Origin: Moorena sp. SIO1F2 | Lineage (GTDB): Bacteria; Cyanobacteriota; Cyanobacteriia; Cyanobacteriales; Coleofasciculaceae | Direction of reading: 5' to 3' | DNA: 15,248 nt | Assembly (NCBI RefSeq): GCF_010672755.1 | Contig: NZ_JAAHFV010000136.1 | Coordinates: 1-15,248 of the forward strand | In this document: positions 1-14,952 of the stretch, piece by piece | How positions within the stretch are numbered: the stretch's first letter is position 1 | Layout of the letters: each line of letters starts with the position of its first letter | Program-made: the position numbers and the translations under genes | Notes under the pieces: generated by a model | The model's database searches: none | The model's input: only the letters and a program-made list of their open reading frames with translations | Told to the model about the DNA's origin: nothing

Positions 1-1110
1 ACATTCTTCCGATCTCTCATTACTCCTATCCCATCGACGGAAAAAACGTGGAAGAGATTTTTGTTTAAACTGGTAGTAACGCTCTGATACTTGACAAAGA
101 TTTATCGTAGCTTGCTTGAATTCACCTTGACTAGCGAGCTCTTCTATAGCATAGGAAAACTGCAATTGATCTAACATTGACTGACATAGCTTGGGAAAAG
201 CCTTATTTTGACTCTTTATCTTTCTAAGTTGCTCTATTTGTTCTTTTCTGGTAATAAATTGGCGTCTGCATATGTCCTGAGGAACAAGGTTTTTTAGTTG
301 ATCGTCTGCTCTTCTAGCACTAGTACACTGAAATACACCAAAGGTAATGACTAGAAACAAGGCGATCAAGCCACCCCAAAAACTAATGGGTGATGGGATT
401 CTGCTAGTTGATGGGGTAGCCGAGGTTGTGGCTTGGTCTGGCTCTAAAGGTACTACAGTTGATTGGTTGGGCTCGTCAGTTGTCAGATCTGGGTGTTTGG
501 GCTCGTCAGTTGTTAGATCTTGGTGTTGAGTAACTGGGGTGATTGATAGGTTAGGAAAAGCCATGGCGATGGCTTGATCAGTAGCATCTGTCGTCAGCTC
601 AGATGCCAACCAATAGTCTGTACTGGTCAACTGTGCTAACTCTTGAGCTACCCAGTTGAGATTAAAAACAGCCTCATAAATACGGTTAGAAACTTTTAAA
701 TTTCCCCCCTGGTTAATCACCACACCGGAGTTGAGCAACACTTTTTGTTCCCAACTGTCATTTGCCATCATGGCTCCCTGCAAAATTTTCTGATACAGCC
801 GCAGGAATTGTTCTTCGAGCAAGAAACTACGAATATCTTGCAGAAGTTCAGCGGCTTCCTGAGTTTCCCAATTTTCAACGAAGTGAGTTTTGACGAGTTC
901 TTCGACTTTAAGAGCTTCCTCACCAACAGGGATGGGAGATTTAAAGTCAAGGATAACTTGACAAAGCTTCTGGGTCAAAAAAGGCTGAGAGCCAGTCCAT
1001 GCCAGTACCTCGTCTAAGATAACATCAGGGTTGATCAGATGTTCCGCCAATGCGGGTTTGAATGGTTCGAGGATTTTAGCCACCTCAGGTTTATCCTGCT
1101 TAGAGGTCAT
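1..1110 (-). CDS. Hypothetical protein, 3' end runs off the window (>370 aa). The N-terminal ~190 aa resemble the GxP/winged-helix region of cyanobacterial STAND (AAA-like) ATPases. A Thr/Pro-rich tandem-repeat linker, one TM helix and a C-terminal domain follow.
   Basis: By hand translation of the minus strand from ATG at 1110-1108 (MTSKQDKPEVAKILEPF...) there is no stop codon down to position 1. A TGA lies in frame just upstream of the ATG. Motifs WTGSQPFLTQKLCQ and NRIYEAVFNLNWVAQEL are present. A hydrophobic stretch ISFWGGLIALFLVITFGVF is present. The ORF is missing from the track only because it is edge-truncated. Confidence 0.6.
   Translation of the reverse strand, partial: MTSKQDKPEVAKILEPFKPALAEHLINPDVILDEVLAWTGSQPFLTQKLCQVILDFKSPIPVGEEALKVEELVKTHFVENWETQEAAELLQDIRSFLLEEQFLRLYQKILQGAMMANDSWEQKVLLNSGVVINQGGNLKVSNRIYEAVFNLNWVAQELAQLTSTDYWLASELTTDATDQAIAMAFPNLSITPVTQHQDLTTDEPKHPDLTTDEPNQSTVVPLEPDQATTSATPSTSRIPSPISFWGGLIALFLVITFGVFQCTSARRADDQLKNLVPQDICRRQFITRKEQIEQLRKIKSQNKAFPKLCQSMLDQLQFSYAIEELASQGEFKQATINLCQVSERYYQFKQKSLPRFFRRWDRSNERSEEC
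467..526. repeat. 30-nt tandem direct repeat, two copies, in frame inside the 1..1110 minus-strand CDS. It encodes DLTTDEP(K/N)... repeats in the linker.
   Basis: ttgggctcgtcagttgtcagatctgggtgt is followed immediately by ttgggctcgtcagttgttagatcttggtgt. Confidence 0.8.
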
Positions 1111-1241
1111 TTCATTCCTTGTGTATTCCAGACTATTTTTCCTTCAAACATATTTTGTGATAGTCTTAAATTTTGGATCAAGATTAACAAGGAATTTCTA
1201 TGACCTACAAGCCAGGTTATCGGTAAGACATGGGGTTTCGA

Positions 1242-1586
1242 CTACATGTCCATTACATCCAACCCCTCTGATGGCATAACCTTTCCCCCATAGGACTTAA
1301 CTACATCTTCAAACAAGGGCATATCATCCTGTGGGATTCCCACTACTACTACCATTTTGGCATATTCCTCTGCTCCTTCTTCCTTGTATTCTATTTGCTC
1401 GAAGGGCAGGTCTGTTGTCCAATCGTCTAAATTGCTATTAATCATAGGGATGTTGGGCAACAGTTCTTCAACTGGGATAGCGCGAGGTTTAAAAGGTAGA
1501 TCCACGCAAAATCGAGGCAGTGCCTGATGAGAAAAATTAACGAAATCCACGGGATTGGTAAAGACGACGGATACTTGGACTTTCAT
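1242..1586 (-). CDS. Hypothetical acidic protein, 114 aa.
   Basis: Complete ORF in the track (MKVQVSVVFTNPVDF...). It is co-oriented with and 130 nt upstream of the 1..1110 CDS, so it is a possible operon partner. No recognisable domain and no clear SD. Confidence 0.45.
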   Translation of the reverse strand: MKVQVSVVFTNPVDFVNFSHQALPRFCVDLPFKPRAIPVEELLPNIPMINSNLDDWTTDLPFEQIEYKEEGAEEYAKMVVVVGIPQDDMPLFEDVVKSYGGKVMPSEGLDVMDM

Positions 1587-1870
1587 AATCTATGCTATGC
1601 TATTCAATCTATTGAGACCGATTTGAATTAATACATCATAGCAAAGATAAGCAGTAAGCTTACCCCGGGCTGTTGGCGTAGCCTGCCGCCAGGCATAGCA
1701 CGGGGGCTTTCGCCCAGGCAACAGGCGCGTTGGTTTTCAGTACCCCTAGCTAACTAACGCCCTTAGACTCCCAATTAATTGAGCCTAAGGGTTAAGGGCT
1801 GAACCTCTAGGTCTGCTTACTCTACGGAAACCCGTAGCTTCTACAACCGAGTCAATTCCCGGACGACCCC

Positions 1871-1948
1871 ATTGAGAATTAAGAATTGAGAATTGAGAAT
1901 TGAGAATTGGTATTTCTGAATTCTTGATTCTTGATTCTTGATTCTTCA
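1871..1948. repeat. STRR-type heptamer tandem arrays: GAATTGA/AATTGAG about x4.5 (1871-1910), immediately followed by TTCTTGA x4 (1921-1948).
   Basis: Read directly: attgagaattaagaattgagaattgagaattgagaattgg ... ttcttgattcttgattcttgattcttc. Confidence 0.9.
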
Positions 1949-2232
1949 ACATTGCTCCGATTTACGTATCACTCGCCGATACTAACCTACTGGCCTAGCC
2001 GTTTTCTCCGGAGCTAAGAGTGCCTTGGCCAATTTCAACCTATATCTATTATACTTGACTGGGGTTAAAACTGCTATGCCGCTTCATCCCGGAGACGAAA
2101 CCTTTGTTTCTTACGTGAGACAGCCTCTGACTTGCAGTCATGCCAAATCTGGGTCTAATAGCACCGTTAACCAAACTGGTAATATGAACAGTATATTATA
2201 TCGCAATGACTCAATTTAGGAACTGATGCCTG

Positions 2233-2628
2233 GTGAATAAAGACGTATCAAGCAGTTTGGTTTACGAGTTCCAGCCTCATCAGATTATTTGCTTAGAGCA
2301 TGACAATACTCGTTTATACGCTGAAGTTATCGAATTTGTGTCATCGCGACAAATGTGTTGGGTGCGTTCTATGATATTCGTCACCTTGCATAGTCAAGAG
2401 CCTGTGCCAGTGAAACCCCCTGAACAGCTTACTCTTTACGACCTACGCTCTGGACCGGATTTACTTTGGCCAGCGAGTTTATTACGACTAGCCTTAGACA
2501 CTGAAGTAATTCCCCTCTTGGTTCGGTTAGATGACCCTGATGTCAATGTAGAAAGTGACCCTGATGCTCGCCAGCAACTAAGTTATTTTATCTGTGCAGT
2601 TTGGCAAGCTTATCCAGACAAGTTTTAA
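2233..2628 (+). CDS. Hypothetical protein, 131 aa. GTG start at 2233; alternative TTG at 2257.
   Basis: ORF track. Protein-like composition, no recognised domain. First internal Met is about 40 codons in, so a non-ATG start is required. Confidence 0.4.
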   Translation: MNKDVSSSLVYEFQPHQIICLEHDNTRLYAEVIEFVSSRQMCWVRSMIFVTLHSQEPVPVKPPEQLTLYDLRSGPDLLWPASLLRLALDTEVIPLLVRLDDPDVNVESDPDARQQLSYFICAVWQAYPDKF

Positions 2629-2779
2629 GTTTTGTTAATGGTTAATCGGTCATAGGACTTTGCCAACTCCATGGTGATCTGATCACGACTCAAGCAGTAG
2701 CAAGTCAGACCCCTTAGGAGAGTAAACTACAGTTGTAGGGGTTTTGCCACATGTAGCTGTCAGAGCTTGCCCCAACCCT

Positions 2780-2818
2780 GAAAGTCATGGCTAAAAGTCA
2801 TGGCTAAAAGTCATGGAG
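2780..2818. repeat. 12-nt tandem repeat AAAAGTCATGGC, about x3.
   Basis: gaaagtcatggctaaaagtcatggctaaaagtcatggag, located between convergent ORFs. Confidence 0.8.
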
Positions 2819-2868
2819 TAGTTACCAAGCCTCCGAGCTGGTCTAGCCTTAGTTTATAACCACTTTTT

Positions 2869-3063
2869 CTAGTGACTCGGAACTAGCTGTACGCGACCAG
2901 CATCCATCTCAGACATTAATAATTCCAGTGCTTCGTAATCCACATCAGAGATGTAACCCGTTTGAGTTAGTTCGTAGTTAATTGCATTCTCTATATCAGG
3001 AGTCAACTGCCTAATATAGAGGGCTTTTTCTACTAGTTGACGAATAACAAAGGTAGTTTTCAC
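2869..3063 (-). CDS. Small hypothetical acidic protein, 64 aa, GTG start.
   Basis: ORF track. Start codon is rc(cac)=GTG with an in-frame TAA two codons upstream. No SD. Confidence 0.3.
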   Translation of the reverse strand: MKTTFVIRQLVEKALYIRQLTPDIENAINYELTQTGYISDVDYEALELLMSEMDAGRVQLVPSH

Positions 3064-3282
3064 AATTACTTACCCACAATTCCATATAAATTTATTGTCT
3101 TCTGAAGTTACTAGCCACTATAGTGATCTTTATCTTATTGGTATGTGATCTAAATCACTGATAAGGTGGATTTGTACTCTCTTAAATACATATTATAAGC
3201 CTTTTGGACTTAACTCATAAAGCTTAACCTGAACGTAAGAAGCTATGCCGTTTCAAGGGTTAGAGGTATTGAAGTTTAGGTG

Positions 3283-3362
3283 CGACCCGTTCCCGTAGCG
3301 TCGGCTTTGCCCAAAGGTGCGACCCAAGGGCGATTTACTCGCCCTTGGAGGCGCGCACCTAA
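3283..3362. repeat. GC-rich nested inverted-repeat element: outer arms AGGTGCG/CGCACCT, inner perfect hairpin CCAAGGGCG-ATTTACT-CGCCCTTGG. SDR/MITE-like or a small structured RNA.
   Basis: ggtgcgacccgttcccgtagcgtcggctttgcccaaaggtgcgacccaagggcgatttactcgcccttggaggcgcgcacct. The 10-mer GGTGCGACCC occurs twice here and as its reverse complement at 7321-7330. Confidence 0.6.
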
Positions 3363-3710
3363 GGCAGTTATAAGGACATACTGCTTAGTACTACTTGCCT
3401 CTACACCCTAGTTAACGTTATACTTATCTAAAGCTAAACATTTGGCTCAAGCCTATAAAAAAAGTCTTATATTTCTATGTCAGGGCAGCTCTATTTAGTG
3501 AATGTAACAAAAATTATAAAAATTTAATCCCTACTTATAGGCATGAAATGAGCGATGCTCTTAGCCACTTAGACCATCGGAAATGAAAAATAAATAAATT
3601 ACTTAACTTGAAAAAAGTAATATATGATACATTTTGTTGATGGTAAGTTTTATGAAGATTTCAAAAACCATTAGCCATCTGTAAAGATTCGGCAAAGTAT
3701 CTCAGAAGTG

Positions 3711-3735
3711 GTATGGAATTAGCAAAATTCCATAC
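3711..3735. promoter_or_regulatory. Perfect 10-bp inverted repeat GTATGGAATT-agcaa-AATTCCATAC, about 60 nt upstream of the STAS gene. Candidate operator or TF binding site.
   Basis: Read directly: the arms are exact reverse complements with a 5-nt spacer and lie in an AT-rich promoter region. Confidence 0.45.
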
Positions 3736-3794
3736 TATCTTCAATATATTCTCTAGAAAATTTTATTGGATTTGACCAAGTGAGGATTCTGCTC

Positions 3795-4127
3795 ATGACA
3801 CAGGCGACCCTGAGTGCAAAATTAAGAATTATTCAACCTTCCGGTCATATTAACGCTTCTAATGCAATTGAGTTTAAAAGTCAGTTGACAGAAGCTGTGG
3901 TGGCTGCTGAGGATTCGGCTTTGTTGGTTGATATGCATAAGTTAGAGTCTCTCGACAGTGCTGGCTTAATGGCCTTAATTCATGCCCTGAAGCTAGCAAG
4001 AAGTCTAGAGAGGCGCTTTGGTCTTTGCTCCGTAGCTCCTTCAATTCGCATTATGCTGGAGCTAACTAAATTAGATGGGGTGTTTGAGATTTTTGAGAGC
4101 CATGAGGCTTTTGCTACAGCCCTCTAG
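3795..4127 (+). CDS. STAS-domain anti-sigma-factor antagonist (SpoIIAA-like).
   Basis: Motifs QPSGHINASNAIEFKSQL...LLVDMHKLESLDSAGLMALIHALKLARS...IMLELTKLDGVFEIFESHEAF are typical of anti-anti-sigma STAS proteins. ATG at 3795 lies 8 nt after GAGGA (3782-3786). The track's GTG at 3780 is an in-frame alternative. Confidence 0.8.
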   Translation: MTQATLSAKLRIIQPSGHINASNAIEFKSQLTEAVVAAEDSALLVDMHKLESLDSAGLMALIHALKLARSLERRFGLCSVAPSIRIMLELTKLDGVFEIFESHEAFATAL

Positions 4128-4375
4128 GGGGTTGGAGTAGGTTGGGAAGCTAACTCAATGGCTCTGAGTGCAGCAAAATAATAGGAAATCTAAGGAAGAT
4201 TAAGTGCTTACAGCGATGATGATGGGAGGAGATAGGGAAATACCAGTCAAGAAGTCTGGTGGTTCTTATCTCCCTCACTTCATCCAACTTCACCCAACCC
4301 GATCTCTACCCTGAGTACTGATAAAATGAATGGTGGATCAGGGCTAACTGCATTGAAAGCAGTAATAAAGTTTCT

Positions 4376-7210
4376 ATGGGAATCACTGTAGAGGAAATAC
4401 TAACACCAGACATCAACAGACCAGCCCGTTACTTAGGTAACGAGTTGGGAGCAGTCCATAAACCTTGGGAAGAAGCTGAGGTACGCTGGGTATTGACTTA
4501 TCCAGAAATCTATGAAGTGGGCGCTTCTAACTTAGGCCATATCATCCTCTACAATATATTGAATTGTCAACCTAGGCAGTTATGCGATCGCGCCTATCTA
4601 CCAGCGCCAGACTTGGCAGCTAAATTACGTTCCACTCAAACTCCTCTGTTTGCTGTCGAGAATCGGCGACCTCTGACAGATTTTGATATTATTGGCTTTA
4701 GCCTTAGCTATGAATTAGGGGCAACCAACATCTTGGAAATGTTGGATTTGGCAGGAATTCCTCTTACCTGGAAAGACCGTGCTGAGTTTGATATATCGGA
4801 AATCCCCCTAATTTTTGCAGGTGGACAAACGGCGACATCGAATCCTGAACCCTATGCTGATTTCTTAGATTTTGTTGATCTTGGCGATGGGGAAGAATTG
4901 TTGCCAGAGATTGGCTTAGTAATCGAAGAGGGCAAAGCAGCTGGCTTAAGTCGAGAAGCGTTACTCCTGGATTTGGCTCAGATACCAGGGGTGTATGTCC
5001 CCCAATTCTATGATATGACTGAGGATGGCTCAGTTAAACCCAACCGCCCTGATGTGCCGAAGCGGATTTTGCGGCGTGTGGCTACACCGATGCCTGCCTA
5101 TGCTATTGGACTAGTACCCTATATCCAAACGGTTCATGACCGACTCAAGATCGAAGTGCGGCGGGGCTGTACTCGCGGTTGTCGGTTCTGCCAACCTGGG
5201 ATGCTGACTCGACCAGCGCGGGATGTGGCACCAGAAAAAGTGGTGGAAGCTATTGAAGAAGGGATGCGTGCTACAGGGTATAACGAGTTTTCCCTTCTAT
5301 CCCTGAGTTGTTCCGATTACCTGGCTCTACCAGCGGTGGGGATGGAAATCAAAAATCGTCTTAAGGATCAGAATATTTCCTTGTCCCTACCGAGTCAGCG
5401 GGTAGACCGCTTTGATGAAAATATTGCCAATATCCTAGGGGGAAATCGCCAGAGTGGCTTGACCTTTGCCCCAGAAGCAGGAACTCAGCGGATGCGGGAT
5501 ATTGTGAATAAGGGACTGACTAATGAAGAACTGCTCAGGGGAGTAAAGACGGCATTTGAGCAAGGCTGGGAGAAAGTCAAGCTCTATTTTATGATTGGTT
5601 TGCCCGGTGAAACGGATGCGGATGTGTTGGGGATTGCGGAAACGGTGCGTTGGTTGCAGCAGGAGTGCCGTGCCAAAGGGAGGAAAACCCTTAAGTTTAA
5701 CATAACTGTTTCTAATTTTACCCCAAAACCTCACACCCCATTCCAGTGGCATTCCGTATCGACTTCGGAGTTTAAACGCAAGCAGGAATTGCTCAAACAA
5801 GTATTTGGTCAGATCAGGGGGGTGAAGGTTAATTACACCGATGTTCGGATTTCGGCCATGGAAGATTTCGTGGGACGGGGTGACAGACGCTTAAGTGCGG
5901 TGGTGCGCCGTGCTTGGGAATTGGGGGCAGGGATGGATGCCTGGATGGAAAGCTTGGATCGGGCATTTGCTGCTTGGGAAAATGCGATCGCTTCATCAGG
6001 TCTAACCTGGAAATATCGCCAAGTAGAAAATGGCGAATGGAACGTGATGGCGGGTGTAGAAGAGTTGCAAGTTGGAAGGTTGAAGGTTGAAAGTTCAGAT
6101 CAACCAGCTAACCTACAACCAGCTAACCTACAACCAACTAACCTTGGCCAAAAGGCCACGCTACGCGAACAACCGTCTAACCTTGGCCAAAAGGCCACGC
6201 TACGCGAACAACCTTCAACCCTTCAACCTTCAACCCTTCAACCTTCAACCCTTCAACCTTCAACCCTTCAACCTTCAACCCTTAACGCCCTTGATGCTCC
6301 CTTGCCTTGGGATCATATTGATACGGGAATTGATAAGAATTGGCTCAAGGAAGATTTACAAAAGGCCTTAGATGCAGCAACGGTACCGGATTGTTCCTTT
6401 GATGGGTGTTCTCACTGTGGTGTGTGTGGGATTGATTTTGGTCATAATGTAGTGATTGACCCGCCGCAGATTCCGCAATTTGCTGGTCACTTTAAACCCA
6501 ATACTAATAAGGATCAGCGGCTGCGGGTTTGGTTTGGAAAGTTGGGGGATATGACCTTGTTGGGTCATCTGGATTTGGCAAGTCTGTTTGAGAGAGCAGT
6601 AAGACGGGCGTCACTACCAATTCGCTATAGTGGGGGGTTTCGGGCTAATGCTCGGATTATGATTGCTAATGCATTGCCCTTGGGAGCGTCTAGTAGTGGG
6701 GAGATTGTGGAGTTTGAGTTAACTGAGAAAATGCCAGTTGAGGAGTTTAGGGAAAGGCTGGTGTCTGAGTTGCCTATAGAGATTCCGGTGTATGGGGTTG
6801 AAGCAGTGGATTTGAAGGAACCTGCTGGAACTCAGCTGTTGGAAAAGGCTGAGTATTTGATTCGAGTTGAGGCAATGTCATCGGTGTCTTGGGAAGAGTG
6901 GCAGGGTTGGATTGAAGCAATTAAGGGTAGTAAGGAAATTTGGTGGGAGCGGTTTACGAAGTCGGGTAAGAAGCAGTGGGTGAATTTATGCGATCGCTTA
7001 TTTGAGTTCGAGGTGATGGAACCCCAAAAACCCAAAGATGGTGAAGAGGAGGTTGCAGAGTCTGGGGTAGTTTTGCAGTATGTGGGGAGTTGTTTGAATG
7101 ATGGCACCATGTTGCGACCAGAGCATATTATTTATATGTTGGATCAGGTGGCGCAGCAGGAGTTTCGTTTGTTGCATGTTCATCGGCAACGGTTGATTCT
7201 GCGCAATTGA
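4376..7210 (+). CDS. Fused radical-SAM protein, 944 aa: an N-terminal TIGR03960-type B12-binding radical-SAM domain (CTRGCRFC = CX3CX2C) joined to a C-terminal TIGR03936/DUF2344-type module. The linker carries an in-frame repeat insertion.
   Basis: N-terminus MGITVEEILTPDINRPARYLGNELGAVHKPWEEAEVRWVLTYPEIYEVG, the radical-SAM cysteine triad, and C-terminal RVWFGKLGDMTLLGHLDLASLFERAVRRASLPIRYSGGF match the two families from memory. Confidence 0.8.
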   Translation: MGITVEEILTPDINRPARYLGNELGAVHKPWEEAEVRWVLTYPEIYEVGASNLGHIILYNILNCQPRQLCDRAYLPAPDLAAKLRSTQTPLFAVENRRPLTDFDIIGFSLSYELGATNILEMLDLAGIPLTWKDRAEFDISEIPLIFAGGQTATSNPEPYADFLDFVDLGDGEELLPEIGLVIEEGKAAGLSREALLLDLAQIPGVYVPQFYDMTEDGSVKPNRPDVPKRILRRVATPMPAYAIGLVPYIQTVHDRLKIEVRRGCTRGCRFCQPGMLTRPARDVAPEKVVEAIEEGMRATGYNEFSLLSLSCSDYLALPAVGMEIKNRLKDQNISLSLPSQRVDRFDENIANILGGNRQSGLTFAPEAGTQRMRDIVNKGLTNEELLRGVKTAFEQGWEKVKLYFMIGLPGETDADVLGIAETVRWLQQECRAKGRKTLKFNITVSNFTPKPHTPFQWHSVSTSEFKRKQELLKQVFGQIRGVKVNYTDVRISAMEDFVGRGDRRLSAVVRRAWELGAGMDAWMESLDRAFAAWENAIASSGLTWKYRQVENGEWNVMAGVEELQVGRLKVESSDQPANLQPANLQPTNLGQKATLREQPSNLGQKATLREQPSTLQPSTLQPSTLQPSTLQPSTLNALDAPLPWDHIDTGIDKNWLKEDLQKALDAATVPDCSFDGCSHCGVCGIDFGHNVVIDPPQIPQFAGHFKPNTNKDQRLRVWFGKLGDMTLLGHLDLASLFERAVRRASLPIRYSGGFRANARIMIANALPLGASSSGEIVEFELTEKMPVEEFRERLVSELPIEIPVYGVEAVDLKEPAGTQLLEKAEYLIRVEAMSSVSWEEWQGWIEAIKGSKEIWWERFTKSGKKQWVNLCDRLFEFEVMEPQKPKDGEEEVAESGVVLQYVGSCLNDGTMLRPEHIIYMLDQVAQQEFRLLHVHRQRLILRN
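6071..6290. repeat. Composite in-frame repeat insertion inside the radical-SAM CDS. Components in order: GGTTGAA x3-4 (6071-6098); a 15-nt repeat CAACCAGCTAACCTA about x3; a 39-nt tandem duplicate containing the GGCCAAAAGGCC palindrome plus ACGCTACGCGAAC (6140-6212); TTCAACC(C) x~10 (6214-6284). TTCAACC is the reverse complement of GGTTGAA.
   Basis: Read directly. Encodes ...VGRLKVESSDQPANLQPANLQPTNLGQKATLREQPSNLGQKATLREQPSTLQPSTLQPSTLQPSTLQPSTL... Confidence 0.85.
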
Positions 7211-7487
7211 GAAATTTGGTGTGGCATTGCTGAATCTTCGGATGAATATGAGTGGGGTGGGCATCCTGCCTGCCCAAAAAGATCCGGTGCGCTTGACCCA
7301 TTAAGAATTAAATTCGCCACGGGTCGCACCGTCAGGAACGGGCAAGATGCCCATTCCACAAAAGTCTTCAAATCATTCCATTATTAAGCAACGCTGCCGG
7401 GAGAGGAGTTGCTGCTTCAAGGAATGGTATAATCAAAAGAAAACCACTGCTTTGATAAGGAAAGCCAATGGTACGGGAGTAACCAAA

Positions 7488-7524
7488 ATTAGCCATTAGC
7501 CATTACACATTACCAATTACCAAG
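7488..7524. repeat. STRR-type heptamer run: ATTAGCC x2, ATTACAC, ATTACCA x2.
   Basis: attagccattagccattacacattaccaattacca. Confidence 0.8.
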
Positions 7525-7563
7525 AATTATATTCTCACTGAGCTAAATTGATCTAGCTAACAA

Positions 7564-8430
7564 TTACTTATTATTTCTAATCCTACCATTAGGCATAATA
7601 GTGTTACAGAAAATAGCATCATTTAATTCAGCCTTAGCTAATTTAGCCTTTTTAAGATTAGCATGGCTAAAATTAGCCTCACTCAAATCAGCATCATGAA
7701 AGTCAACACCTTCTAAATTGGCATAACTTAGGTTTGCGCCCCTCAAGTCACTATTATACAGTCTTGCACCACTCAAATTAGCATGACTAAGGTTAGCGCC
7801 AGACATTTCCTCATAACCAAGGTTGATATTTTTCAAGTCTAAACCGCTTAAGTCAGCCTCTGCACAAATAAAGATTGCTCCTGCTTTTGATGGGTTAAAT
7901 CCAGTCGGAAACTCAGTGCATGACGTATAGATAGCTTTAGTAAAATTTATACTACTAAGGTCAGCTTTTTTCCAGCCATCAACCCCTAGCATACGGGCAT
8001 AACTGAGGTTAGCATTGCTCAGGTCAGAATCACCTAGGTAAACGTCACATAAGGTAGCATAAGTAAAATTGGCATCCGTGAGCTTACTACCAGCCATATA
8101 GATTACAGATAAATCAGCATAGCTCAGATCAGTACCACTAAAGTCGCAGTTTTCCAAGGTTGATTCAGATGCTACTAGATGACTCAAGTTAGCCTTAGTG
8201 AGGTTGGAATTTTCGATAGTGGTTTCATATAGGTAAACATTCCTCAAGTTAGCATGACTTAGATCCACATCATCCCAACTAGCTTCCTCTAAATCAGCAT
8301 TACTCAAGTCAGCATAATTTAGACAAACACCCTTGAGGTTAGTACTTTTCAAGTTAGCCTTTTTAAAATTAATACCAGAAAAATCTCTTTCACCGGCTTC
8401 GTAGCGTTTTAGGAATTCATCACGATTCAT
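7564..8430 (-). CDS. Pentapeptide-repeat protein, 288 aa.
   Basis: Protein is dominated by A(D/N)LSxANLxxA pentapeptide units (ANLSHANLSGARLYNSDLRGANLSYANLEGVDF...). ATG at 8430 is preceded by AAGGGG. Confidence 0.9.
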   Translation of the reverse strand: MNRDEFLKRYEAGERDFSGINFKKANLKSTNLKGVCLNYADLSNADLEEASWDDVDLSHANLRNVYLYETTIENSNLTKANLSHLVASESTLENCDFSGTDLSYADLSVIYMAGSKLTDANFTYATLCDVYLGDSDLSNANLSYARMLGVDGWKKADLSSINFTKAIYTSCTEFPTGFNPSKAGAIFICAEADLSGLDLKNINLGYEEMSGANLSHANLSGARLYNSDLRGANLSYANLEGVDFHDADLSEANFSHANLKKAKLAKAELNDAIFCNTIMPNGRIRNNK

Positions 8431-8563
8431 AGTATGCCCCTTATTTGTTTAATATTAGATAGTAATCATCCTGATTATATCGTAAAAAAAAATTTTATTA
8501 GTATTTTCATGGGTTGGGTTAATGATTAATGGTTAATAGTTGTTAGTACTTAATGGTATCAAG

Positions 8564-8626
8564 CCTAATCTAAGGGTGCCTAATCCTTAATTCTTAATCC
8601 CTCATCCCTGATCCTTTATCCTTAAT
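8564..8626. repeat. Degenerate heptamer (TAATCCT-like) tandem repeats in the divergent intergenic region.
   Basis: cctaatctaagggtgcctaatccttaattcttaatccctcatccctgatcctttatccttaat. Confidence 0.6.
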
Positions 8627-8937
8627 GTGCCGATCAGCAGATGAAATTGCTCCCAACTCCATAAACTTGACGTAGTCATAACGAGTTTTGGTTATTTTAG
8701 CAGAACAGAAAAATAAAGGTTAGGTTAGTTTTATAGGGAGTTAATTTGCTGTCAGGTTACAAAATAGTTGATTGTTGATTAGGCTTTAGGGATAAACCAT
8801 GAACTATAGTAATCCTACATGAATCGTGAAATTTCCTGATCCGAAGTTACCTTGTAAAAAAATTCTGCTTTAATTGTGTCTGACTACTTACGACCTATAA
8901 AGGCAACTTAATAATCCAGTTCGATTAGACCAAGACT

Positions 8938-9813
8938 ATGACTACAACTGAGCGTAAAACAGAGAATAAAATGGAAGTGCCTAGGACAACTAGTGAAGTT
9001 ATTCGCATCAAACCTCAACAGTTTATTCATGTGCTAGACAACAACACCGGTGTTACCCGACTGGAGGTTGGTCCTCAAACCATTACCCTTCGCGATCACG
9101 AGCGGCTGATCTTAAAACCTGAACCGATGATTATTGTGCCGCCTCGGTATTATTGTGTGGTTGCTAATCCGTTACTCCGGGATGAAGACGGTCAACCCAT
9201 TGCTGATCAGCATGGTCAAATTCGACTGCGCTACGGTGATCTGGAAATTCGTTTCGCGCAAGATCCGTTTCCCCTTTATCCAAACGAGAAACTAGTAGGG
9301 GATGTCACCCAACTGGCAGTAGTCGAGACCAATCAAGCACTGCGTCTGAGAGCAATTCGGGATTTTACCGATACCGTTACGAGAATACTTGATGGAGAAA
9401 CCCAGACTGAAACAATTAACCGTTTAGCAGGTGATGAATGGCTATTTGAAGGACCTGGAACCTATATTCCCCGAGTGGAGGTGGAAGTAGTTGAGACAGT
9501 AACAGCTGAGGTGATTAAACCTAACCAAGCCTTACACCTGTTAGCACGGCAAAATTGCACCGATCGTCAAAGGAATAGACGTAGAGCAGGTGAAGAATGG
9601 CTCGTTAGAGAAGAAGGAGCCTATTTACCTGGTGTAGATGAAGAAGTAATTGGCATTATTAATGCTTACATTTTGACAGAACAAAAAGCATTACATCTCA
9701 AAGCTAAACGCACCTTTACTGATATTTTGGTCGTCAGCGTAAAGCTGGAGATGAATGGTTGGTCACCTTTGAAGATGCAGAAATTCATATTCCCGATGTT
9801 TATGAAGATGTAG
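8938..9813 (+). CDS. Major vault protein (MVP) homologue, N-terminal part (MVP repeat domains). Homology stays in this frame up to about 9722. A single -1 frameshift separates it from the next ORF.
   Basis: Aligns from memory with human MVP: FIHVLDNNTGVTRLEVGPQT, VPPRYYCVVANP, RLRYGDLEIRFAQDPFPLYP, GDEWLFEGPGTYIPRVEVEVVE, KALHLKAKRTFTD. After TD the sequence no longer resembles MVP. Confidence 0.85.
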   Translation: MTTTERKTENKMEVPRTTSEVIRIKPQQFIHVLDNNTGVTRLEVGPQTITLRDHERLILKPEPMIIVPPRYYCVVANPLLRDEDGQPIADQHGQIRLRYGDLEIRFAQDPFPLYPNEKLVGDVTQLAVVETNQALRLRAIRDFTDTVTRILDGETQTETINRLAGDEWLFEGPGTYIPRVEVEVVETVTAEVIKPNQALHLLARQNCTDRQRNRRRAGEEWLVREEGAYLPGVDEEVIGIINAYILTEQKALHLKAKRTFTDILVVSVKLEMNGWSPLKMQKFIFPMFMKM

Positions 9814-11576
9814 TGGGAGAAGTCACGATTACTACCCTGAGCGATCACGAATGGTGTATTGTGGTTGACCCCATTGATGAGTCTGGTAAACCTCAGCTGG
9901 GTATGCGAGAGATTCGCCAGGGGAGAACATCATTTTTCTTGCATCCCGGTGAGTCCTTGGAGAATGGTATCCAAAACATCTATGTTCTCAGTGAGCTGGA
10001 AGCACTGTTGCTTCGAGCCAAAGAAGCTTTTAATGAGGGAGAAGGTGACCAGGTCATTACTCATCAACCAGGGGATTTATGGATGATTGCTGGGCCACAA
10101 GATTATATTCCCCGTGTGGAAGTGGAAGTGGTTGAGAAGCGTCAAGCCATTCCCCTCGATAAGAATGAAGGTATCTATGTGCGTAATATTCAGACTGGTG
10201 AACTCAAGCTGGTCGGTGGTCCTCAGGCTTATATGCTCACTCCCTATGAGAAGCTTTGGGAAAAAGAACTGCCATCGGTAGTTGAGGAACTGTTGATGCA
10301 AAAAATCGACCCATTGTCTGGACGTGGTCAGCATTCTTTAGCTGGGGGCGATCAGTCGGAGGGAAAATCAGGAGTGCGCCAACGTCTATCCCAACGGGAT
10401 AAGACTAGAGCAGTTGTGTTTCATATTCCTCAAAATGCTGCTGTGCAGCTCCATGACTATAAAAACAGAACTGCCAGAACTGTATTTGGACCGGACTTGG
10501 TGATGCTCGAACCAGATGAAGCCTTTACGGTACTTTCTTTATCAGGTAGCAAGCCCAAACGACCTAATGTCATCAAATCCTTAGCCTTATTACTCGGTCC
10601 TGATTTTATGACCGATATCTTTACCGTAGAGACAGCAGACCATACCAGATTGCAGCTACAGCTGTCCTATAACTGGTACTTTGATGTGGACAGACACGAT
10701 GAACAAACTGCAGCCAGACTGTTTCAAGTACCTGATTTTGTGGGAGATACTTGTAAAGCGATCGCATCCCGAGTGCGGGGTGCTGTAGCAGGGGAAAAAT
10801 TTGATGAATTTCACCGCAATTCAGCCCGGATTATCCGACTGGCGGTGTTTGGCACTGATGAAGAAGGTCATATTCGAGATGAATTTCGTTTCCGAGCCAA
10901 TAACCTAGTAATTACCAATATTGACATTCAGTCAGTGGAGCCAGTGGATGAAGAAACCTTAAGGAGCTTGCAAAAGTCAGTGCAGCTAGCGATTCAAATT
11001 ACCACTGATGCTCAAGAAGCTGCTGCACGCCAAGATGCGGAACGGATTGAGCAAGAAGCGAAAGCCAGGTTGGAAAGGCAAGTAATTTTGGATCAAAGTG
11101 CAGCAGAAGCAGAACGCAAAAAACTTCTAGAATTACAAGCAGAAAATATAGCCATTGAGTCTACAGGTCAGGCAACAGCAGAAGCAAGAGCTAAGGCTGA
11201 AGCGGCTCAGATTCAAGGACAATTAGCAGTTAACTTGGCTCAGCAAGACGCCGAGGCGGCTCGGATTCGCAATGAAATGGAGTTAGCTCAACTCAAAGCA
11301 CGTCAGGAAGCTGAATTAGCCCATCAACAGAGTTTGAATAACCTAGAGATTGCCAAAGCTGAGCGTATGGCTCACATTAAGAGTGAAGAATACCGACAGA
11401 AAGTAGAAGCAATTGGTCCTCAAACCATTCAAGCGATCGCACAAGCAGGTCCGGAAATGCAGGCAAGACTTCTAGAAGCACTTGGTATCCAGAGTGTTTT
11501 GATTACCGATGGCAAAAATCCCATCAATCTATTTGGTGCAGCTAATGGTCTGATTACTCCCCCAACTTCTAACTAA
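9759..11576 (+). CDS. Major vault protein homologue, C-terminal part (remaining MVP repeats, shoulder, cap-helix, cap-ring). MVP homology in this frame begins at 9723, directly after a TGA at 9720-9722.
   Basis: ...GRQRKAGDEWLVTFEDAEIHIPDVYEDV, KTRAVVFHIPQNAAVQLHDYKNRTARTVFGPDLV, RPNVIKSLALLLGPDFMTDIFTVETADHTRLQLQLSYNWYFDV, VPDFVGDTCKAIASRVRGAVA and EAIGPQTIQAIAQAGPEMQARLLEALGIQSVLITDGKNPINLFG are near-identical to eukaryotic MVP from memory. Combined length is about 879 aa. Confidence 0.85.
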   Translation: MVTFEDAEIHIPDVYEDVVGEVTITTLSDHEWCIVVDPIDESGKPQLGMREIRQGRTSFFLHPGESLENGIQNIYVLSELEALLLRAKEAFNEGEGDQVITHQPGDLWMIAGPQDYIPRVEVEVVEKRQAIPLDKNEGIYVRNIQTGELKLVGGPQAYMLTPYEKLWEKELPSVVEELLMQKIDPLSGRGQHSLAGGDQSEGKSGVRQRLSQRDKTRAVVFHIPQNAAVQLHDYKNRTARTVFGPDLVMLEPDEAFTVLSLSGSKPKRPNVIKSLALLLGPDFMTDIFTVETADHTRLQLQLSYNWYFDVDRHDEQTAARLFQVPDFVGDTCKAIASRVRGAVAGEKFDEFHRNSARIIRLAVFGTDEEGHIRDEFRFRANNLVITNIDIQSVEPVDEETLRSLQKSVQLAIQITTDAQEAAARQDAERIEQEAKARLERQVILDQSAAEAERKKLLELQAENIAIESTGQATAEARAKAEAAQIQGQLAVNLAQQDAEAARIRNEMELAQLKARQEAELAHQQSLNNLEIAKAERMAHIKSEEYRQKVEAIGPQTIQAIAQAGPEMQARLLEALGIQSVLITDGKNPINLFGAANGLITPPTSN

Positions 11577-11690
11577 GTGCATCTGTGTCTGCTGCTTGCT
11601 GTGTCTGCTGCGCGCTGGCACGGCTTCCCTTATACACAGATACACGGATAACCCAACGCTATCTTACCGGTCTATCTTACCGGTCTATCT
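11577..11690. repeat. Repeat-rich convergent intergenic segment. Imperfect inverted repeat GTGCATCTGTGT / ACACAGATACAC (11577-11588 / 11634-11645). Direct 12-mer CTGTGTCTGCTG x2 (11583-11594 and 11599-11610). Tandem 13-mer TATCTTACCGGTC x2 (11660-11685), which overlaps the stop of the minus-strand small gene.
   Basis: Read directly. Confidence 0.7.
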
Positions 11691-11898
11691 GTGTCGAAGG
11701 TTGAGAGTTGAGGTGTTGCTCAACTCTGTTAATGACCCCTAGTACGAGAAACAGAGCAAATACTACAGCAACACCGATAGCAGTCCACTTGAAAAAAACT
11801 AACTTTGGCCGACCTTTAGCTGGATAACCACAACTGAGGCAAATTTCATCGTTGGTGCTGGTTAAAGAGCCACAAACGTTACACTGTTCTAAAGCCAT
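11677..11898 (-). CDS. Small zinc-ribbon membrane protein, 73 aa (CxxC-13-CxxC followed by one TM helix).
   Basis: MALEQCNVCGSLTSTNDEICLSCGYPAKGRPKLVFFKWTAIGVAVVFALFLVLGVI...; ATG start. Confidence 0.55.
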   Translation of the reverse strand: MALEQCNVCGSLTSTNDEICLSCGYPAKGRPKLVFFKWTAIGVAVVFALFLVLGVINRVEQHLNSQPSTQIDR

Positions 11899-12094
11899 AG
11901 TTCTTGGAAATCTCTACCGTCATAAGATAACTGAAAAAATTATCAGGTGGGTAGAGTACTTTGAGCCTTCGTTACCAACTCCTTGATCCCCAAGTTGCTT
12001 AGTTCAAGTGGGTAGGTTACAAAAAAATCAGGGCACAAGGGAAAACCTCCAGGTATGAAGCCTGTGACCAATTACCGATTACCCATTCCTAATC

Positions 12095-14296
12095 ATGGCC
12101 TCAGGACACAATTTAATTCTGGATCTAACCACAGTTCTAGGGGCTTCTGCTCTGGGAGGCTACCTTGCCAATCGGCTACGTCAACCTGTACTTTTAGGCT
12201 ATTTAGCCAGTGGTTTATTGGTTGGTCCGTTTGGTCTTAAACTCGTAGGCGAATTAGAACAAGTCAAATCCCTAGCTGAAATTGGGATTGTTTTTTTGTT
12301 ATTCACCTATGGGGTAGAATTTTCTCTATCCCAGCTTAAACGATTTAAAGATATTGTCCTGAAAGGTAGTTTACTGCAAATTAGTCTCACTATTACCCTA
12401 GTTGCAGTTTTAGCCAATGGACTTGGTTGGGTTGACGGATTTACTCCGGGAATAATGCTCGGATTCATCATCTCCCTTTCCTCCACCTCAGTAGTTCTTA
12501 AAACTCTGATGGAGAGAGGAGAAACCAATACCATTCATGGTCAAGTGATGCTGGCAATTTTGATTGCTCAAGACCTTAGTTTAGGTCTGATGTTAGCCGT
12601 CATCCCCGCCCTTCAGCAGCCCTCAGATATTGGCTCAGCTTTAGTTGTTGCTTTACTCAAAGCTTTGGTGTTTCTAGCTGCTGCTCTAGCCGCCGGTCGC
12701 TGGATAGTTCCCCATCTCATTAAATATATTGCCCGCACTGAAAACAGTGAGCTATTTCTGATCACAGTAATTGCCCTGTGTTTAGGGATTGCTTTGATTA
12801 CTGCTGGACTTGGTCTATCCGTTGAAATGGGAGCATTTGTGGCAGGCTTAATGATGGCTGAAATTGATTATGCTGACCAAGCAGTTGCCAAAATAATTCC
12901 CCTTAAAGATACGTTTGTATGTTTATTTTTTGCATCCATAGGAATGCTCATTGAGCCGGAAGTGCTGCTCGAAAACTTCGGCATAATCATCGGTTTAGTG
13001 ATGTTAGTCATGGGGGGCAAAGCAGCCATTATCCTACCGATTGTACTGAAATTTGGCTATTCCTTTAAAACTGCTTTTATTGCTAGTTTTGGTCTCAATC
13101 AAATTGGAGAATTTTCCTTTGTATTAGCAGTGGTTGGCTTTGAGTTAGGATTTATCACTAGGGATCAGTATCTACTCCTGGTGGGAACCACAGCCATTAC
13201 CCTAGTCCTGACACCCATGTGGCTGAGATGGTCTCCCCGAATAGCAGACCACCTGGTAAATCTGCCGTTTCTGAAAAACTACCTGCGTCAGTTTCAGGGC
13301 ACTAAAGCTTTGTCAATTCCAGAAACGATTTGTAATCATGTGGTAGTGGCTGGCTATGGACGAGTGGGGCGAGTACTGGTCAACATCCTGCGCAATCAAG
13401 GGCATCAGGTACTAGTGATTGAAAATAGCGAAGCTGCTATTCAACGATTAAGACATGAAAAAATTCCCTATATGTTTGGGGATGCTCACTCGGAACTGGT
13501 GTTAGAAAAAGCCCATCTAGAAAAAGCTAAAGCCCTAGCCATTGCTCTGCCCGATCCTGGCAGTACCCGCTTGTTGCTCAAACGTGCCCTCAAGTTTGCC
13601 CCAGGACTGGATATTGTGGCTCGTTCTCACAAAAATAGCGAAATTGACCTACTTACCCAGTTAGGGGCGCGGGAAGTAGTGCAACCAGAATTTGAGGCAG
13701 CATTGGAAATGGGAGCCCATGTGCTAGTAGCATTGGGAGAAACCCCAGGGATGATTCAGTCGGTCATCAATCGGATTCACCAAGACCGCTATTTGAGTGT
13801 ACGACCTGAACAAGCTACCTATTCAAAGCAGCAAGACATCACTGATGTTGCCCAAGAACTCCACAGTGAGTGGGTGACTTTGAGTCAAACTTCCCGTCTA
13901 GATTGGGTAACTCTGGCAGCAGCAGATATCCGTAACGTGACTGGGGTAACAGTTTTGACAATTCAACAAGGTAATGATATAGTCCACTACCCACAAGGTA
14001 AGATGACGTTGCGTTCAGGGGATCGATTGCTAGTTGTTGGGGAACCGGAAGAATTAGCAGCGTTTAGAGACTGGATCGAAAGTCGCAGTTTCCTTAGTGA
14101 GGGATCTAAGCATTGGGTAACTTTGGTAGAGAATTCAAGTTTGGTGGGTATGAAGCCAATTGATCTCCAGAATCAATACAATGTCATAGTTCAGGCGTTG
14201 CGTAGACAAGGGAAACTGTATAATCCGGTGGATGAAGCTGGAGTATTGCAGGTGGGGGATTGTGTGTTGTTGTCTGGGGAATGGGATGAGGACTGA
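12095..14296 (+). CDS. Kef-type monovalent cation:proton antiporter (CPA2 family) with a C-terminal RCK/TrkA-N domain and two TrkA-C domains, 733 aa.
   Basis: About 12 TM segments in the N-terminal half. Rossmann motif VVVAGYGRVGRVLVNIL. Two C-terminal RCK_C-like segments (...GDRLLVVGEPEELAAF..., ...GDCVLLSGEWDED). Confidence 0.85.
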   Translation: MASGHNLILDLTTVLGASALGGYLANRLRQPVLLGYLASGLLVGPFGLKLVGELEQVKSLAEIGIVFLLFTYGVEFSLSQLKRFKDIVLKGSLLQISLTITLVAVLANGLGWVDGFTPGIMLGFIISLSSTSVVLKTLMERGETNTIHGQVMLAILIAQDLSLGLMLAVIPALQQPSDIGSALVVALLKALVFLAAALAAGRWIVPHLIKYIARTENSELFLITVIALCLGIALITAGLGLSVEMGAFVAGLMMAEIDYADQAVAKIIPLKDTFVCLFFASIGMLIEPEVLLENFGIIIGLVMLVMGGKAAIILPIVLKFGYSFKTAFIASFGLNQIGEFSFVLAVVGFELGFITRDQYLLLVGTTAITLVLTPMWLRWSPRIADHLVNLPFLKNYLRQFQGTKALSIPETICNHVVVAGYGRVGRVLVNILRNQGHQVLVIENSEAAIQRLRHEKIPYMFGDAHSELVLEKAHLEKAKALAIALPDPGSTRLLLKRALKFAPGLDIVARSHKNSEIDLLTQLGAREVVQPEFEAALEMGAHVLVALGETPGMIQSVINRIHQDRYLSVRPEQATYSKQQDITDVAQELHSEWVTLSQTSRLDWVTLAAADIRNVTGVTVLTIQQGNDIVHYPQGKMTLRSGDRLLVVGEPEELAAFRDWIESRSFLSEGSKHWVTLVENSSLVGMKPIDLQNQYNVIVQALRRQGKLYNPVDEAGVLQVGDCVLLSGEWDED

Positions 14297-14326
14297 ATGA
14301 TCTGGTGCGCGAGACGATGCGATTAG

Positions 14327-14362
14327 CCCGAAGGGCTACGCTACGCGAACGCATCCTTCGAG
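14327..14362. repeat. Short dispersed repeat copy or hairpin: CGAAGG-gctACGCTACGCGAACgcat-CCTTCG. It shares the 13-mer ACGCTACGCGAAC with the in-CDS repeat at 6160-6172 and 6199-6211.
   Basis: Read directly. Begins 31 nt after the antiporter stop. Confidence 0.6.
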
Positions 14363-14769
14363 AGCCGAATCCCCCGATTTCACATAAATCCATACAGCAA
14401 GCAAATTTTTCTCAAACTAATTCTCAAACTAACTAGACACCCTTAGCAAAATACTATATACTATACAATAGTGACATTATGACAGTTGCTTCCTCAGCAA
14501 CTGGTGTTCTGGGTGTGCTTTAGGCTGAGAAGTAGGTTCGAGGCAAGATAATATAGACAGCATACCAGGCGTTTGTTTGGCATCAGGGCTAAAGTAGGTC
14601 AAAGACAGTTAGGTATAAACAAGTCCCATCAGTTCTTGGGTCTGCTTTAGGTCAATAAGTGCTTACACTTTCGTGGATCAAGGGATACTGAGTTATTAGC
14701 AACTTAAGTCCCAGCGAAGTCAGGCGAGTTTAATAGCCTTTTCTGACCAGTAAACGCAATTGAAGGATA

Positions 14770-14825
14770 ATCTAGCTCGACCCTCATGCCGAGCTAGATA
14801 AAAGTGGGCTCTCTGCTTATTTTTT
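14770..14825 (+). terminator. Perfect 10-bp stem hairpin ATCTAGCTCG-accctcatgc-CGAGCTAGAT, followed about 20 nt later by a T6 run. Candidate terminator of an unannotated transcript upstream of rplC.
   Basis: Read directly. The distance between stem and T-run is longer than in a canonical intrinsic terminator. Confidence 0.3.
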
Positions 14826-14835
14826 GAGGAGAGGT

Positions 14836-14880
14836 TTATCCACTATAAATAGTGACCAGGTTTATAATGACCAGGTTTGT
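14836..14880 (+). promoter_or_regulatory. Candidate rplC (S10 operon) promoter. TATAAT at 14863-14868 is embedded between two direct copies of TGACCAGGTTT (14853-14863 and 14868-14878). A second TATAAAT lies at 14844-14850.
   Basis: Read directly. It lies about 85 nt upstream of the rplC start. No good -35 box. Confidence 0.35.
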
Positions 14881-14952
14881 GGCACAAAGGGAATTCAGGT
14901 TTGTGAATATCCCTGCTGCCAGACTGCTGCAATGTCTACAAAGGAGAAACCC

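Follow-up and report, generated by a model that had tools for sequence, protein, structure and literature searches.

A hypervariable repeat segment in a radical-SAM gene of Moorena, probably an old heptamer array carrying a 24-nt dispersed repeat

What kind of DNA is the run of short repeats that fills part of a conserved enzyme gene in the cyanobacterium Moorena sp. SIO1F2, and how could it have come to lie there in frame? The locus belongs to a stretch of 15,248 nt (contig NZ_JAAHFV010000136.1, positions 1 to 15,248, forward strand), called here the window, in which positions 6056-6290 consist of repeats throughout, in frame with the open reading frame (ORF) 4376..7210 that encodes a radical-SAM protein. 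A preliminary description had interpreted this segment as a composite resembling a miniature inverted-repeat transposable element (MITE). In the reading that we consider likely, it is a hypervariable low-complexity insert in a tolerant loop of the TIGR03960 domain, made up of an old heptamer array and of a 24-nt dispersed repeat of Moorena, named E. The dispersed, mobile-looking part of the earlier interpretation is retained and corresponds to the 24 nt of E, whereas the single unit of about 220 nt with terminal inverted repeats is given up.

Tandem repeats were called with Tandem Repeats Finder and a repeat finder, and every sequence feature previously listed for the segment is present at its coordinates. 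The host gene and the successive parts of the segment are the following.

4376-7210 (+): host gene, 944 aa, a TIGR03960 B12-binding radical SAM protein fused with a TIGR03936/DUF2344 domain
6056-6095 (+): left arm of AAGGTTG-type heptamers, the reverse complement of the right-hand array, encoding ...VEELQVGRLKVES
6101-6145 (+): three 15-nt units CAACC(A/G)NCTAACCT(A/T), encoding QPANL/QPTNL, a 7+8-nt derivative of the heptamer array
6146-6169 (+): first copy of E, 24 nt, GGCC-AAAA-GGCC-ACGCTACGCGAA, inserted at AACCTT^CAACC and encoding GQKATLRE
6170-6184 (+): 15-nt unit CAACCGTCTAACCTT between the two E copies, which together with one E forms a 39-nt tandem unit
6185-6208 (+): second copy of E, with the same sequence as the first
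6209-6283 (+): (CAACCTT+CAACCCTT) x5, an array of 15-nt period encoding (QPSTL)x5

GAAGGTT is repeated 3.0 times at 6075-6095 within the left arm, CAACCAGCTAACCTA 2.9 times at 6101-6144 and a 39-mer 2.4 times at 6130-6220, the two complete copies of the latter being 95% identical. The right-hand array at 6209-6283 comprises 5.0 copies of CAACCTTCAACCCTT with 100% matches, equivalent to ten alternating 7- and 8-nt TTCAACC(C) units. The segment translates as ...QPANLQPANLQPTNLGQKATLREQPSNLGQKATLREQPSTL(QPSTL)x4... (an example peptide is ATLREQPSNLGQK), and the reading frame is kept with the peptide repeats that had been reported. Positions 6056-6091 pair with 6222-6257 as inverted arms over 36 nt (83% complementary, with a 14-nt perfect core), and the predicted RNA fold of 6050-6295 (-67.6 kcal/mol, z = -6.24) pairs the left arm to the distal right array. 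The 13-mer ACGCTACGCGAAC occurs exactly at 6158, 6197 and 14338; at two mismatches or fewer it has five matches against 0.10 expected, a number reached in 0/200 shuffles.

The position of the segment within the host protein differs from that first proposed. The protein scores 598.7 bits against TIGR03960 and 182.9 bits against TIGR03936, above the curated cut-offs of 462.3 and 71.9, respectively. Its TIGR03960 part corresponds to residues 8-550 and 640-686, and its TIGR03936/DUF2344 part to residues 715-940. The match to the TIGR03960 profile (605 positions) stops at 549 before the repeat and resumes at 555-600 directly after it. Because this match continues beyond the repeat and TIGR03936 begins at residue 715, the segment lies inside the TIGR03960 domain, which it interrupts near its C-terminal end, and is not a linker between the TIGR03960-like and DUF2344-like halves, as had been thought. 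The best 15 orthologues are all from Moorena (90-96% identity) and none is from Nostoc; the organism is a Moorena. These orthologues measure 882-971 aa, the entire difference being contained in the repeat segment, and in 60 orthologues the interval between the conserved TWKYRQVENGEWNV and LDAPLPWDHI ranges from 27-34 up to 132 residues.

Repeats of other sequence occupy the same spot in other genera, as periodic peptides (ESGVRSQ, QQAAGSR, IQNPKSK) and as pure heptanucleotide arrays, namely (TCAGGAG)x19.6 and (AAATCCA)x4.6 at locus L131 and (CAGCAGG)x16.4 at locus L132. A relative outside Moorena, L006 (~76% identical), has (AGTTGAA)x5 abutting (AACCTTC)x6.9; it shares the left arm and the inverted-arm-plus-array layout of the window, without the 39-mer or E. 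The NLQPxNLQP peptide array is common to relatives at ~75% identity, and M. producens PAL (L003) has a short array remnant with neither left arm nor E. Since L006 lies outside Moorena and has the array and inverted arm without E, the CAACCTT-type array with its inverted left arm predates Moorena; it is an STRR-like array of some age, lodged in a tolerant loop. Alternating 7+8 = 15-nt units (QPSTL/QPxNL) keep it in frame in Moorena. The GQKATLRE part is recent, because it is restricted to Moorena and polymorphic. The preliminary description had expected that the peptide repeats of an inserted element would be missing from distant orthologues; this holds for GQKATLRE and fails for the old NLQPxNLQP array.

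Interrupted and uninterrupted arrays (AACCTT^CAACC) differ by exactly GGCCAAAAGGCCACGCTACGCGAA, which defines E. The empty site reads AACCTTCAACC and the filled site AACCTT[24 nt]CAACC. With the general formula GGCC-N4-GGCC-ACGCTACGCGAA, the 24 nt end without overlap with the flanks; the boundaries are unambiguous and there is no target duplication. E is predicted to fold into two adjacent hairpins, (T)GGCC-N4-GGCC(A) and CGC-TAC-GCG, whose stems co-vary across the family. It amounts to eight codons and is open in five of its six frames. Eight alleles of the host gene were compared codon by codon at the DNA level. Sister strains carry 0-5 copies of E per allele, at three positions, in two forward frames and on the reverse strand, as follows.

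Window: two copies of E (6146-6169 and 6185-6208)
L001: five forward copies and one reverse-strand copy
L004: one copy, with loop TTTC
L003 (M. producens PAL): no E
L007: no forward copy, one reverse-strand copy
L002 and L005: the same 24 nt at CCTT^CAACC after the 7-nt half-unit, in another frame (WPKGHATRT)

Further CCTT^C sites of the 6209-6283 array, empty in the window strain, are filled in L001. The reverse-strand copies of L001 and L007 lie in the left arm (AGGTTG^AAGGTT) with the same target and relative orientation on the opposite strand, and carry a change of TAG to AAG that removes the sole stop among the six frames of E. The second stem in L005 has undergone a compensatory double change from CGC-TAC-GCG to CCC-TAC-GGG. 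At least three independent insertion positions are found inside 200 nt, in strains that are at least 93% identical and whose flanks are 92-98% identical. The alleles uphold the proposal that the coding region was invaded in frame by a small, dispersed and apparently mobile repeat, which is tolerated there and still changes in copy number between strains.

A scan for GGCCNNNNGGCCACGCTACGCGAA covered one genome per species in 185,579 species; its figures refer to the matches listed and are lower bounds. At least 120 stretches were found, 119 of them in five Moorena species and one a chance match in GC-rich Micromonospora. The Moorena stretches, at least 119 in number, hold at least 186 copies of E, and the further genomic copies of the core motif predicted from the window thus exist. 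Among 5.8 billion proteins, all 19 significant matches to the E-encoded peptide (19/19) came from Moorena. E with its flanks gave chance matches in enterobacterial plasmids and nothing else when compared with plasmids, and E had no match in viral contigs. Among the matches listed, the four bases 5' of E are C, C, T and T in 134, 132, 140 and 151 of 152 unique contexts, with R-A before them, and the base at +1 after E is C in 123/152 and T in 26/152. The sequence ACCTT^CAAC, i.e. the heptamer array, makes up 75/152 of these contexts. More than 30 of the listed copies are nested in the loop of another family member (GACCTT^E^TGGTC... or GGCCTT^E^TGGCC...), and nesting reaches up to three levels. 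Again among the matches listed, the DNA within 60 nt of E holds 476 occurrences of AACCTT against 11 of AAGGTT. E thus keeps one orientation relative to the arrays, and its sites do not in general have inverted arms.

These contexts bear on the possibility that a larger unit, roughly AACCTT-E-CAACC, spreads and seeds CAACCTT arrays that expand by slippage, so that E creates its own apparent target. Such a unit would explain the RACCTT-E-CAAC(C) flanks at single copies in unique DNA (e.g. L045, L053, L080 and L105) and the co-occurrence of arrays and E in many genes. It is nevertheless unlikely, as the nested copies lie between CCTT and YGG without CAACC, relatives embedded in HIP1 sites have entirely different flanks, the array is older than E in the radical-SAM gene (L006), and E sits exactly between complete heptamers in intergenic arrays such as L011 and L014.

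The tail CGCTACGCGA of E also follows hairpins with other stems (TGACC/GGTCA, TAGCCC/GGGCTA, TCGGC/GCCGA and GCTCG/CGAGC). Since the same tail accompanies differing stems, the E family conserves structure and not stem sequence. One relative lies elsewhere in the window.

14324-14349 (+): 26-nt E-family member in an intergenic HIP1 site (GCGAT^CGC), composed of the hairpin TAGCCC-GAA-GGGCTA and, after it, the CGCTACGCGAA tail

The window, L001 and L007 all carry an insertion at this site, where L004 has the uninterrupted GCGATCGC. The cut point within HIP1 is ambiguous, GCGAT being repeated at both junctions. The kinship suspected from the 13-mer in the hairpin at 14338 is confirmed, this copy belonging to the E family through the shared tail. 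Many GACC-stem copies of Moorena likewise split HIP1, whereas the two copies in the radical-SAM gene target CCTT^C.

The loop variants of E include reverse-complement pairs (AAAA/TTTT, AATA/TATT and TAAA/TTTA), which suggest hairpin flipping. As a signature of flipping by template switching, and with the amplification of E plus its adjoining unit in tandem being clearly local, they could be taken to mean that E-like units arise locally and repeatedly without transposition, through replication errors driven by hairpins, for instance template switching at quasi-palindromes or gene conversion from one array to another. We find this quite improbable, given that the identical 24-mer with the same sharp ends occurs at more than 150 distinct sites, array-free coding DNA included (L010, L013, L047 and L073), and that template switching requires a nearby template.

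The habit of occupying coding DNA extends well beyond the radical-SAM gene. Among the matches listed, open frames of 250 codons or more contain 40 copies of E, with three forward and two reverse frames in use. Intact ORFs holding E, confirmed with Pfam, encode a nonribosomal peptide synthetase (NRPS), a CurM-like polyketide synthase (PKS), a CheA-like kinase, a CHAT/TPR protein, a ChlH/CobN-type chelatase, where E falls between DUF3479 and the CobN domain, and a P-type ATPase. The PKS, from M. producens 3L, has the order KS-AT-KR-ACP-sulfotransferase-thioesterase (ST-TE for the last two), an architecture that we take to be that of CurM, and carries E in the ST-TE linker. In long ORFs, E copies are spaced by 39 nt in 24/24 cases, whereas elsewhere the spacing is 31, 35, 38, 39, 44-46, 54 nt, etc., with multiples of 3 in 8/24; this contrast is therefore a signature of frame-preserving selection on a DNA-level process.

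Two further observations concern translated E. The ST-TE linker of the CurM-like gene (L082, M. producens 3L scf45985, 312-320 kb) has a run, SNPKGEQPSNLQPSNLQPSNLQPSNLQPPNLGQKATLREE, composed of array, E and a second repeat family, E2 (see below), building blocks that it has in common with the radical-SAM gene. In addition, 19 short Moorena 'hypothetical proteins' (P0121-P0139, 46-100 aa) are essentially translated E plus array; such annotations probably reflect intergenic arrays wrongly called as genes.

For the radical-SAM enzyme, the repeat insert is probably functionless. The repeats might instead serve as a selected P/Q/S/T/N-rich tether or as cis-acting DNA or RNA hairpins (translational pausing, mRNA stability, protein binding), as proposed for REP sequences; nearly every filamentous relative keeps some insert at the loop, a strong RNA structure is predicted and the left-arm/right-array inversion is conserved between genera. 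This is nonetheless highly improbable, because the insert measures anything from ~8 to over 100 residues and has unrelated sequences in different lineages, sister strains read the same DNA in differing frames and on both strands, PAL has almost no insert, and E is identical as DNA across unrelated genes while the encoded peptides differ. Hardly any credence can be given to the view that the whole composite of ~220 nt is one MITE-like element, bounded by inverted heptamer arrays, that transposed once into the gene and now only slips: its arms and long-range helix are real and its internal motifs are dispersed in the genome, but arms and array occur without E in L006 and an array remnant alone in PAL, strains differ unit by unit with E at three positions and in both orientations, filled sites lack target duplication, inverted arms almost never surround other listed E copies, no second complete arm-array-E-array composite was found in ~0.9 Mb of Moorena DNA, and the MITE combination of terminal inverted repeats, target duplication and a whole unit repeated elsewhere is absent from the segment.

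We return to the reading of an old array invaded by E, which would operate in two layers. In the first, the number of array units would change by slipped-strand mispairing or unequal exchange. In the second, E is inserted exactly between CCTT and C without duplication, its orientation being fixed with respect to the array, and is then co-amplified with the adjoining 15-nt unit as a 39-nt (13-codon) tandem repeat. Most insertions in coding DNA would survive, because E adds eight codons and is open in five of six frames, and selection would retain frame-preserving array states alone. The peptide encoded by E and the array would be a tolerated passenger.

Elements of the IS200/IS605 type insert 3' of a 4-5-nt target in a fixed orientation, without duplication or terminal inverted repeats, and carry end hairpins; PATEs are their miniature derivatives. 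E resembles them in following CCTT in ~90% of the 152 contexts among the matches listed, in its single orientation, in the lack of duplication and in its predicted hairpins. It differs in being about ten times smaller than known PATEs, and the IS605-type elements of L001 and L088 have ends and targets unlike those of E. By analogy, Y1/HUH 'peel-and-paste', in which DNA with hairpin ends would be cut and rejoined 3' of a short target without leaving a duplication, would be the known mechanism that best fits the rules of E. Insertion in trans by a hairpin-recognizing single-strand HUH/Y1-type enzyme, as for IS200/IS605 and REP/RAYT, is the mechanism that we prefer, as a tentative possibility. 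It is rather doubtful that E and its relatives are currently active, target-specific mobile DNAs of 24 nt whose movement relies on an undescribed mechanism, whether through a HUH/Y1-like host enzyme with a two-hairpin substrate or in some new way.

Several points weigh against the favored reading or limit it. In ~0.9 Mb of Moorena DNA, no enzyme could be linked to E and no cargo-carrying master element was found, all 39 orphan 3' halves hosting nested E. The single Y1 transposase in this DNA, at L088 (Moorena sp. SIO3I8), was found with an IS200 TnpA probe, Pfam then giving Y1_Tnp at 2e-37. It lies beside an E dimer that is present on one side only, just after the tnpA stop codon. Its tnpA-tnpB pair was rejected as the source of E, being an ordinary IS605 unit with an end hairpin (CCCACATCA/TGATGTGGG) unlike E, and so was the polymorphic TnpB element of L001, with target TGAC/TAAC, end ...GTCAA and hairpins GGGGC + CCCCAGC. 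The restriction of E to Moorena is not absolute, since the scan counts are a lower bound. Within arrays, a 24-nt insertion is not fully separable from gain or loss of whole 39-nt units, and some nested copies, a minority, agree better with a unit of 25 nt. The AACCTT...CAAC flanks persist at single copies in unique DNA, and the mobile unit could take in a few flanking bases. Along the 8.26-Mb contig of M. bouillonii PNG, the orientations of the listed copies, an incomplete sample, are mixed with no visible switch. The lack of function is argued from frame-independence and polymorphism alone. Finally, an AlphaFold2 model of the 944-aa protein (58-sequence alignment; mean pLDDT 53.6, pTM 0.36), in which the insert (residues 542-637) has a pLDDT below 50 like many other regions, is too poor to place the insert as a surface loop.

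E-family insertions also occur within transposon genes. The IS605 unit of L088 (5060-6888, Y1 TnpA + TnpB) has them inside tnpA (SRRCAN) and tnpB (VRVAEAVG), and a homologous tnpB in L073 has a complete inserted E (VRVAWPFGH).

Among known systems, E is closest to the small dispersed repeats (SDR, above all SDR5) of Nostocaceae, reportedly described by Elhai et al. in 2008 (Genome Res 18:1484). In citing papers, SDR are hairpin-forming repeats of 21-27 nt in Nostocaceae (PMC4390886, PMC5861425, PMC2884548), SDR5 inserts precisely within HIP1, after its third nucleotide and before its fourth (PMC4390886), and Elhai et al. are quoted as finding no SDR-like repeat outside Nostocaceae (PMC5861425). 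E (24 nt, from the difference between empty and filled sites) and the 14324-14349 copy (26 nt) fall in this size class and are likewise hairpin-forming, E is dispersed in its many copies through five Moorena species, and both show exact presence or absence at orthologous sites (three positions in the host gene and the HIP1 site). As in SDR, copies of the E family are nested in one another and in MITE-like repeats. As described for SDR5, the 14324-14349 copy and many others of Moorena split HIP1, and a plasmid of Nostoc sp. NIES-3756 carries GCGATTGCCTACGGCACGCTACGCGATCGC, whose tail is shared with the E family. The layout GCGAT-T-hairpin-ACGCTACGCGA(T/A)CGC occurs on this plasmid, which reads GCGAT-T-hairpin-ACGCTACGCGATCGC with the tail of the Moorena copies, and on plasmids of Gloeocapsa PCC 7428 and Chroococcidiopsis PCC 7203. 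In contrast to SDR, the host of E is Moorena (Oscillatoriales-type, Coleofasciculaceae), outside the Nostocaceae, relatives with the tail motif extend to the latter two plasmids, and E heavily occupies coding regions in frame; unlike SDR5, E targets CCTT^C in CAACCTT arrays and hairpin loops, not HIP1. The E family belongs to the SDR kind, and its HIP1-splitting members probably correspond to SDR5 as citing papers describe it. E does not form a new category; what sets it apart is a new target and its striking frequency in coding DNA.

REP/REPIN sequences are short (20-40 nt), species-specific, high-copy hairpin repeats tagged by GTAG and mobilized by RAYT (Y1/HUH) transposases (PMC3733652, PMC3116915). 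E is similarly short, hairpin-forming, high-copy, genus-restricted, sometimes intragenic and without target duplication, and its reverse complement has GTAG beside a hairpin (TTCGC-GTAG-CGT-GGCC-TTTT-GGCC). However, the main stem of E is only 4-5 bp long, GTAG lies inside the second mini-hairpin, 3 nt from the main stem and not at the end, and E copies are mostly single and direct rather than in inverted pairs, many of them intragenic. In ~0.9 Mb of Moorena DNA, we found no RAYT gene with E on its flanks. STRR are heptanucleotide tandem repeats of filamentous cyanobacteria, and the right array of the segment, with its alternating 7/8-nt units, shows this feature. Heptamer repeats in cyanobacteria are discussed in PMC4679880. 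The scaffold of the segment is 7-nt-derived, the same loop holds pure 7-nt arrays in L131, L132 and L006, and the window also has intergenic heptamer arrays; the difference is that the array of the segment lies inside a conserved enzyme gene and is held to 7+8 = 15-nt units or to lengths divisible by 3. Ogata et al. are said to have reported in 2000 that Rickettsia palindromic elements (RPE) lie in frame within protein-coding genes. Both RPE and E are selfish palindromic repeats that enter ORFs with the frame left intact, so that a peptide is added at tolerant sites of many unrelated proteins, yet RPE are 100-150 nt long and apparently no longer active, whereas E has 24 nt, is polymorphic between near-identical strains and is tied to tandem arrays. 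RPE are also mentioned in PMC3733652. Our search of the literature on Moorena repeats found nothing relevant.

The second family, E2, has the form TACCC-TAC-GGGAA-CGCC-AAA-GGCG-AA (~24-26 nt) in L096 (the M. bouillonii PNG orthologue), L015, L048 and others. It too lies within AACC...CAACC arrays, encoding PYGNAKGEQ / SNPKGEQ, and no copy was found in the window. E2 shares its CCC-TAC-GGG-AA module with the altered second hairpin that E has in L005, which suggests that modules are shuffled from one family to another.

Other insertions distinguish the window from its relatives.

3281-3361 (-): MITE-like insertion of ~82 nt between GTTTAGG and CAGTTATAAG, present in the window and L001, absent from L003, L004 and L005

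It has inverted ends (GGTGCGACCC / GGCGCGCACC) and a central hairpin. A diverged member of the E family, GGC-AAA-GCC-G-ACGCTACGgGAA, is nested in it on the minus strand, with a 10-nt duplication on its flanks. Another insertion of ~460 nt (1656-2114), absent from L004, L005 and L007, holds the intergenic arrays ATTGAGA x5.6 and ATTCTTG x3.9 and, at 1672-1684 on the minus strand, a GGC-TAC-GCC variant of the second-hairpin motif. Polymorphic IS605-type TnpB-only elements lie at varying places in the orthologous 20-kb region of sister strains (L001 2315-3671, L002 13584-14840, L005 7178-9855). Gene content also varies in the interval from the radical-SAM gene to the Na+/H+ exchanger, where the ABC transporter, TerB and vault genes are present in some strains and missing in others. 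Vault homologues are unusual in bacteria. The vault gene at 8938-11576 (+), major-vault-protein-like (Pfam Vault, MVP_shoulder), is an intact 879-aa ORF in L001, L002 and L007 and wholly absent from L004; in the window it forms two overlapping ORFs through a 1-nt deletion in a T-run (T5 to T4) near 9724, which is either a pseudogene or a sequencing error.

The repeat segment is thus most likely irrelevant to the radical-SAM enzyme itself, and its interest lies with bacterial repeats and the biosynthetic genes of Moorena. Mobile repeats of ~24 nt have otherwise been described, as far as we found, for Nostocaceae alone, and the Moorena E subfamily extends the phenomenon to a further cyanobacterial lineage. 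It offers experimental handles in its exact ends, four-base target, fixed orientation, self-nesting and HIP1-targeting relative. GQKATLRE, WPKGHATRT and LAKRPRYAN-type peptides and NLQPxNLQP runs in Moorena proteins, including PKS/NRPS linkers, are to be read as products of selfish DNA and not as functional motifs. If E is active, its CCTT^C target, nesting rule and strain polymorphism would make SDR movement directly testable, and the loops and linkers of Moorena proteins, including those of megasynthases such as the CurM-like PKS, would be continually rewritten in frame.

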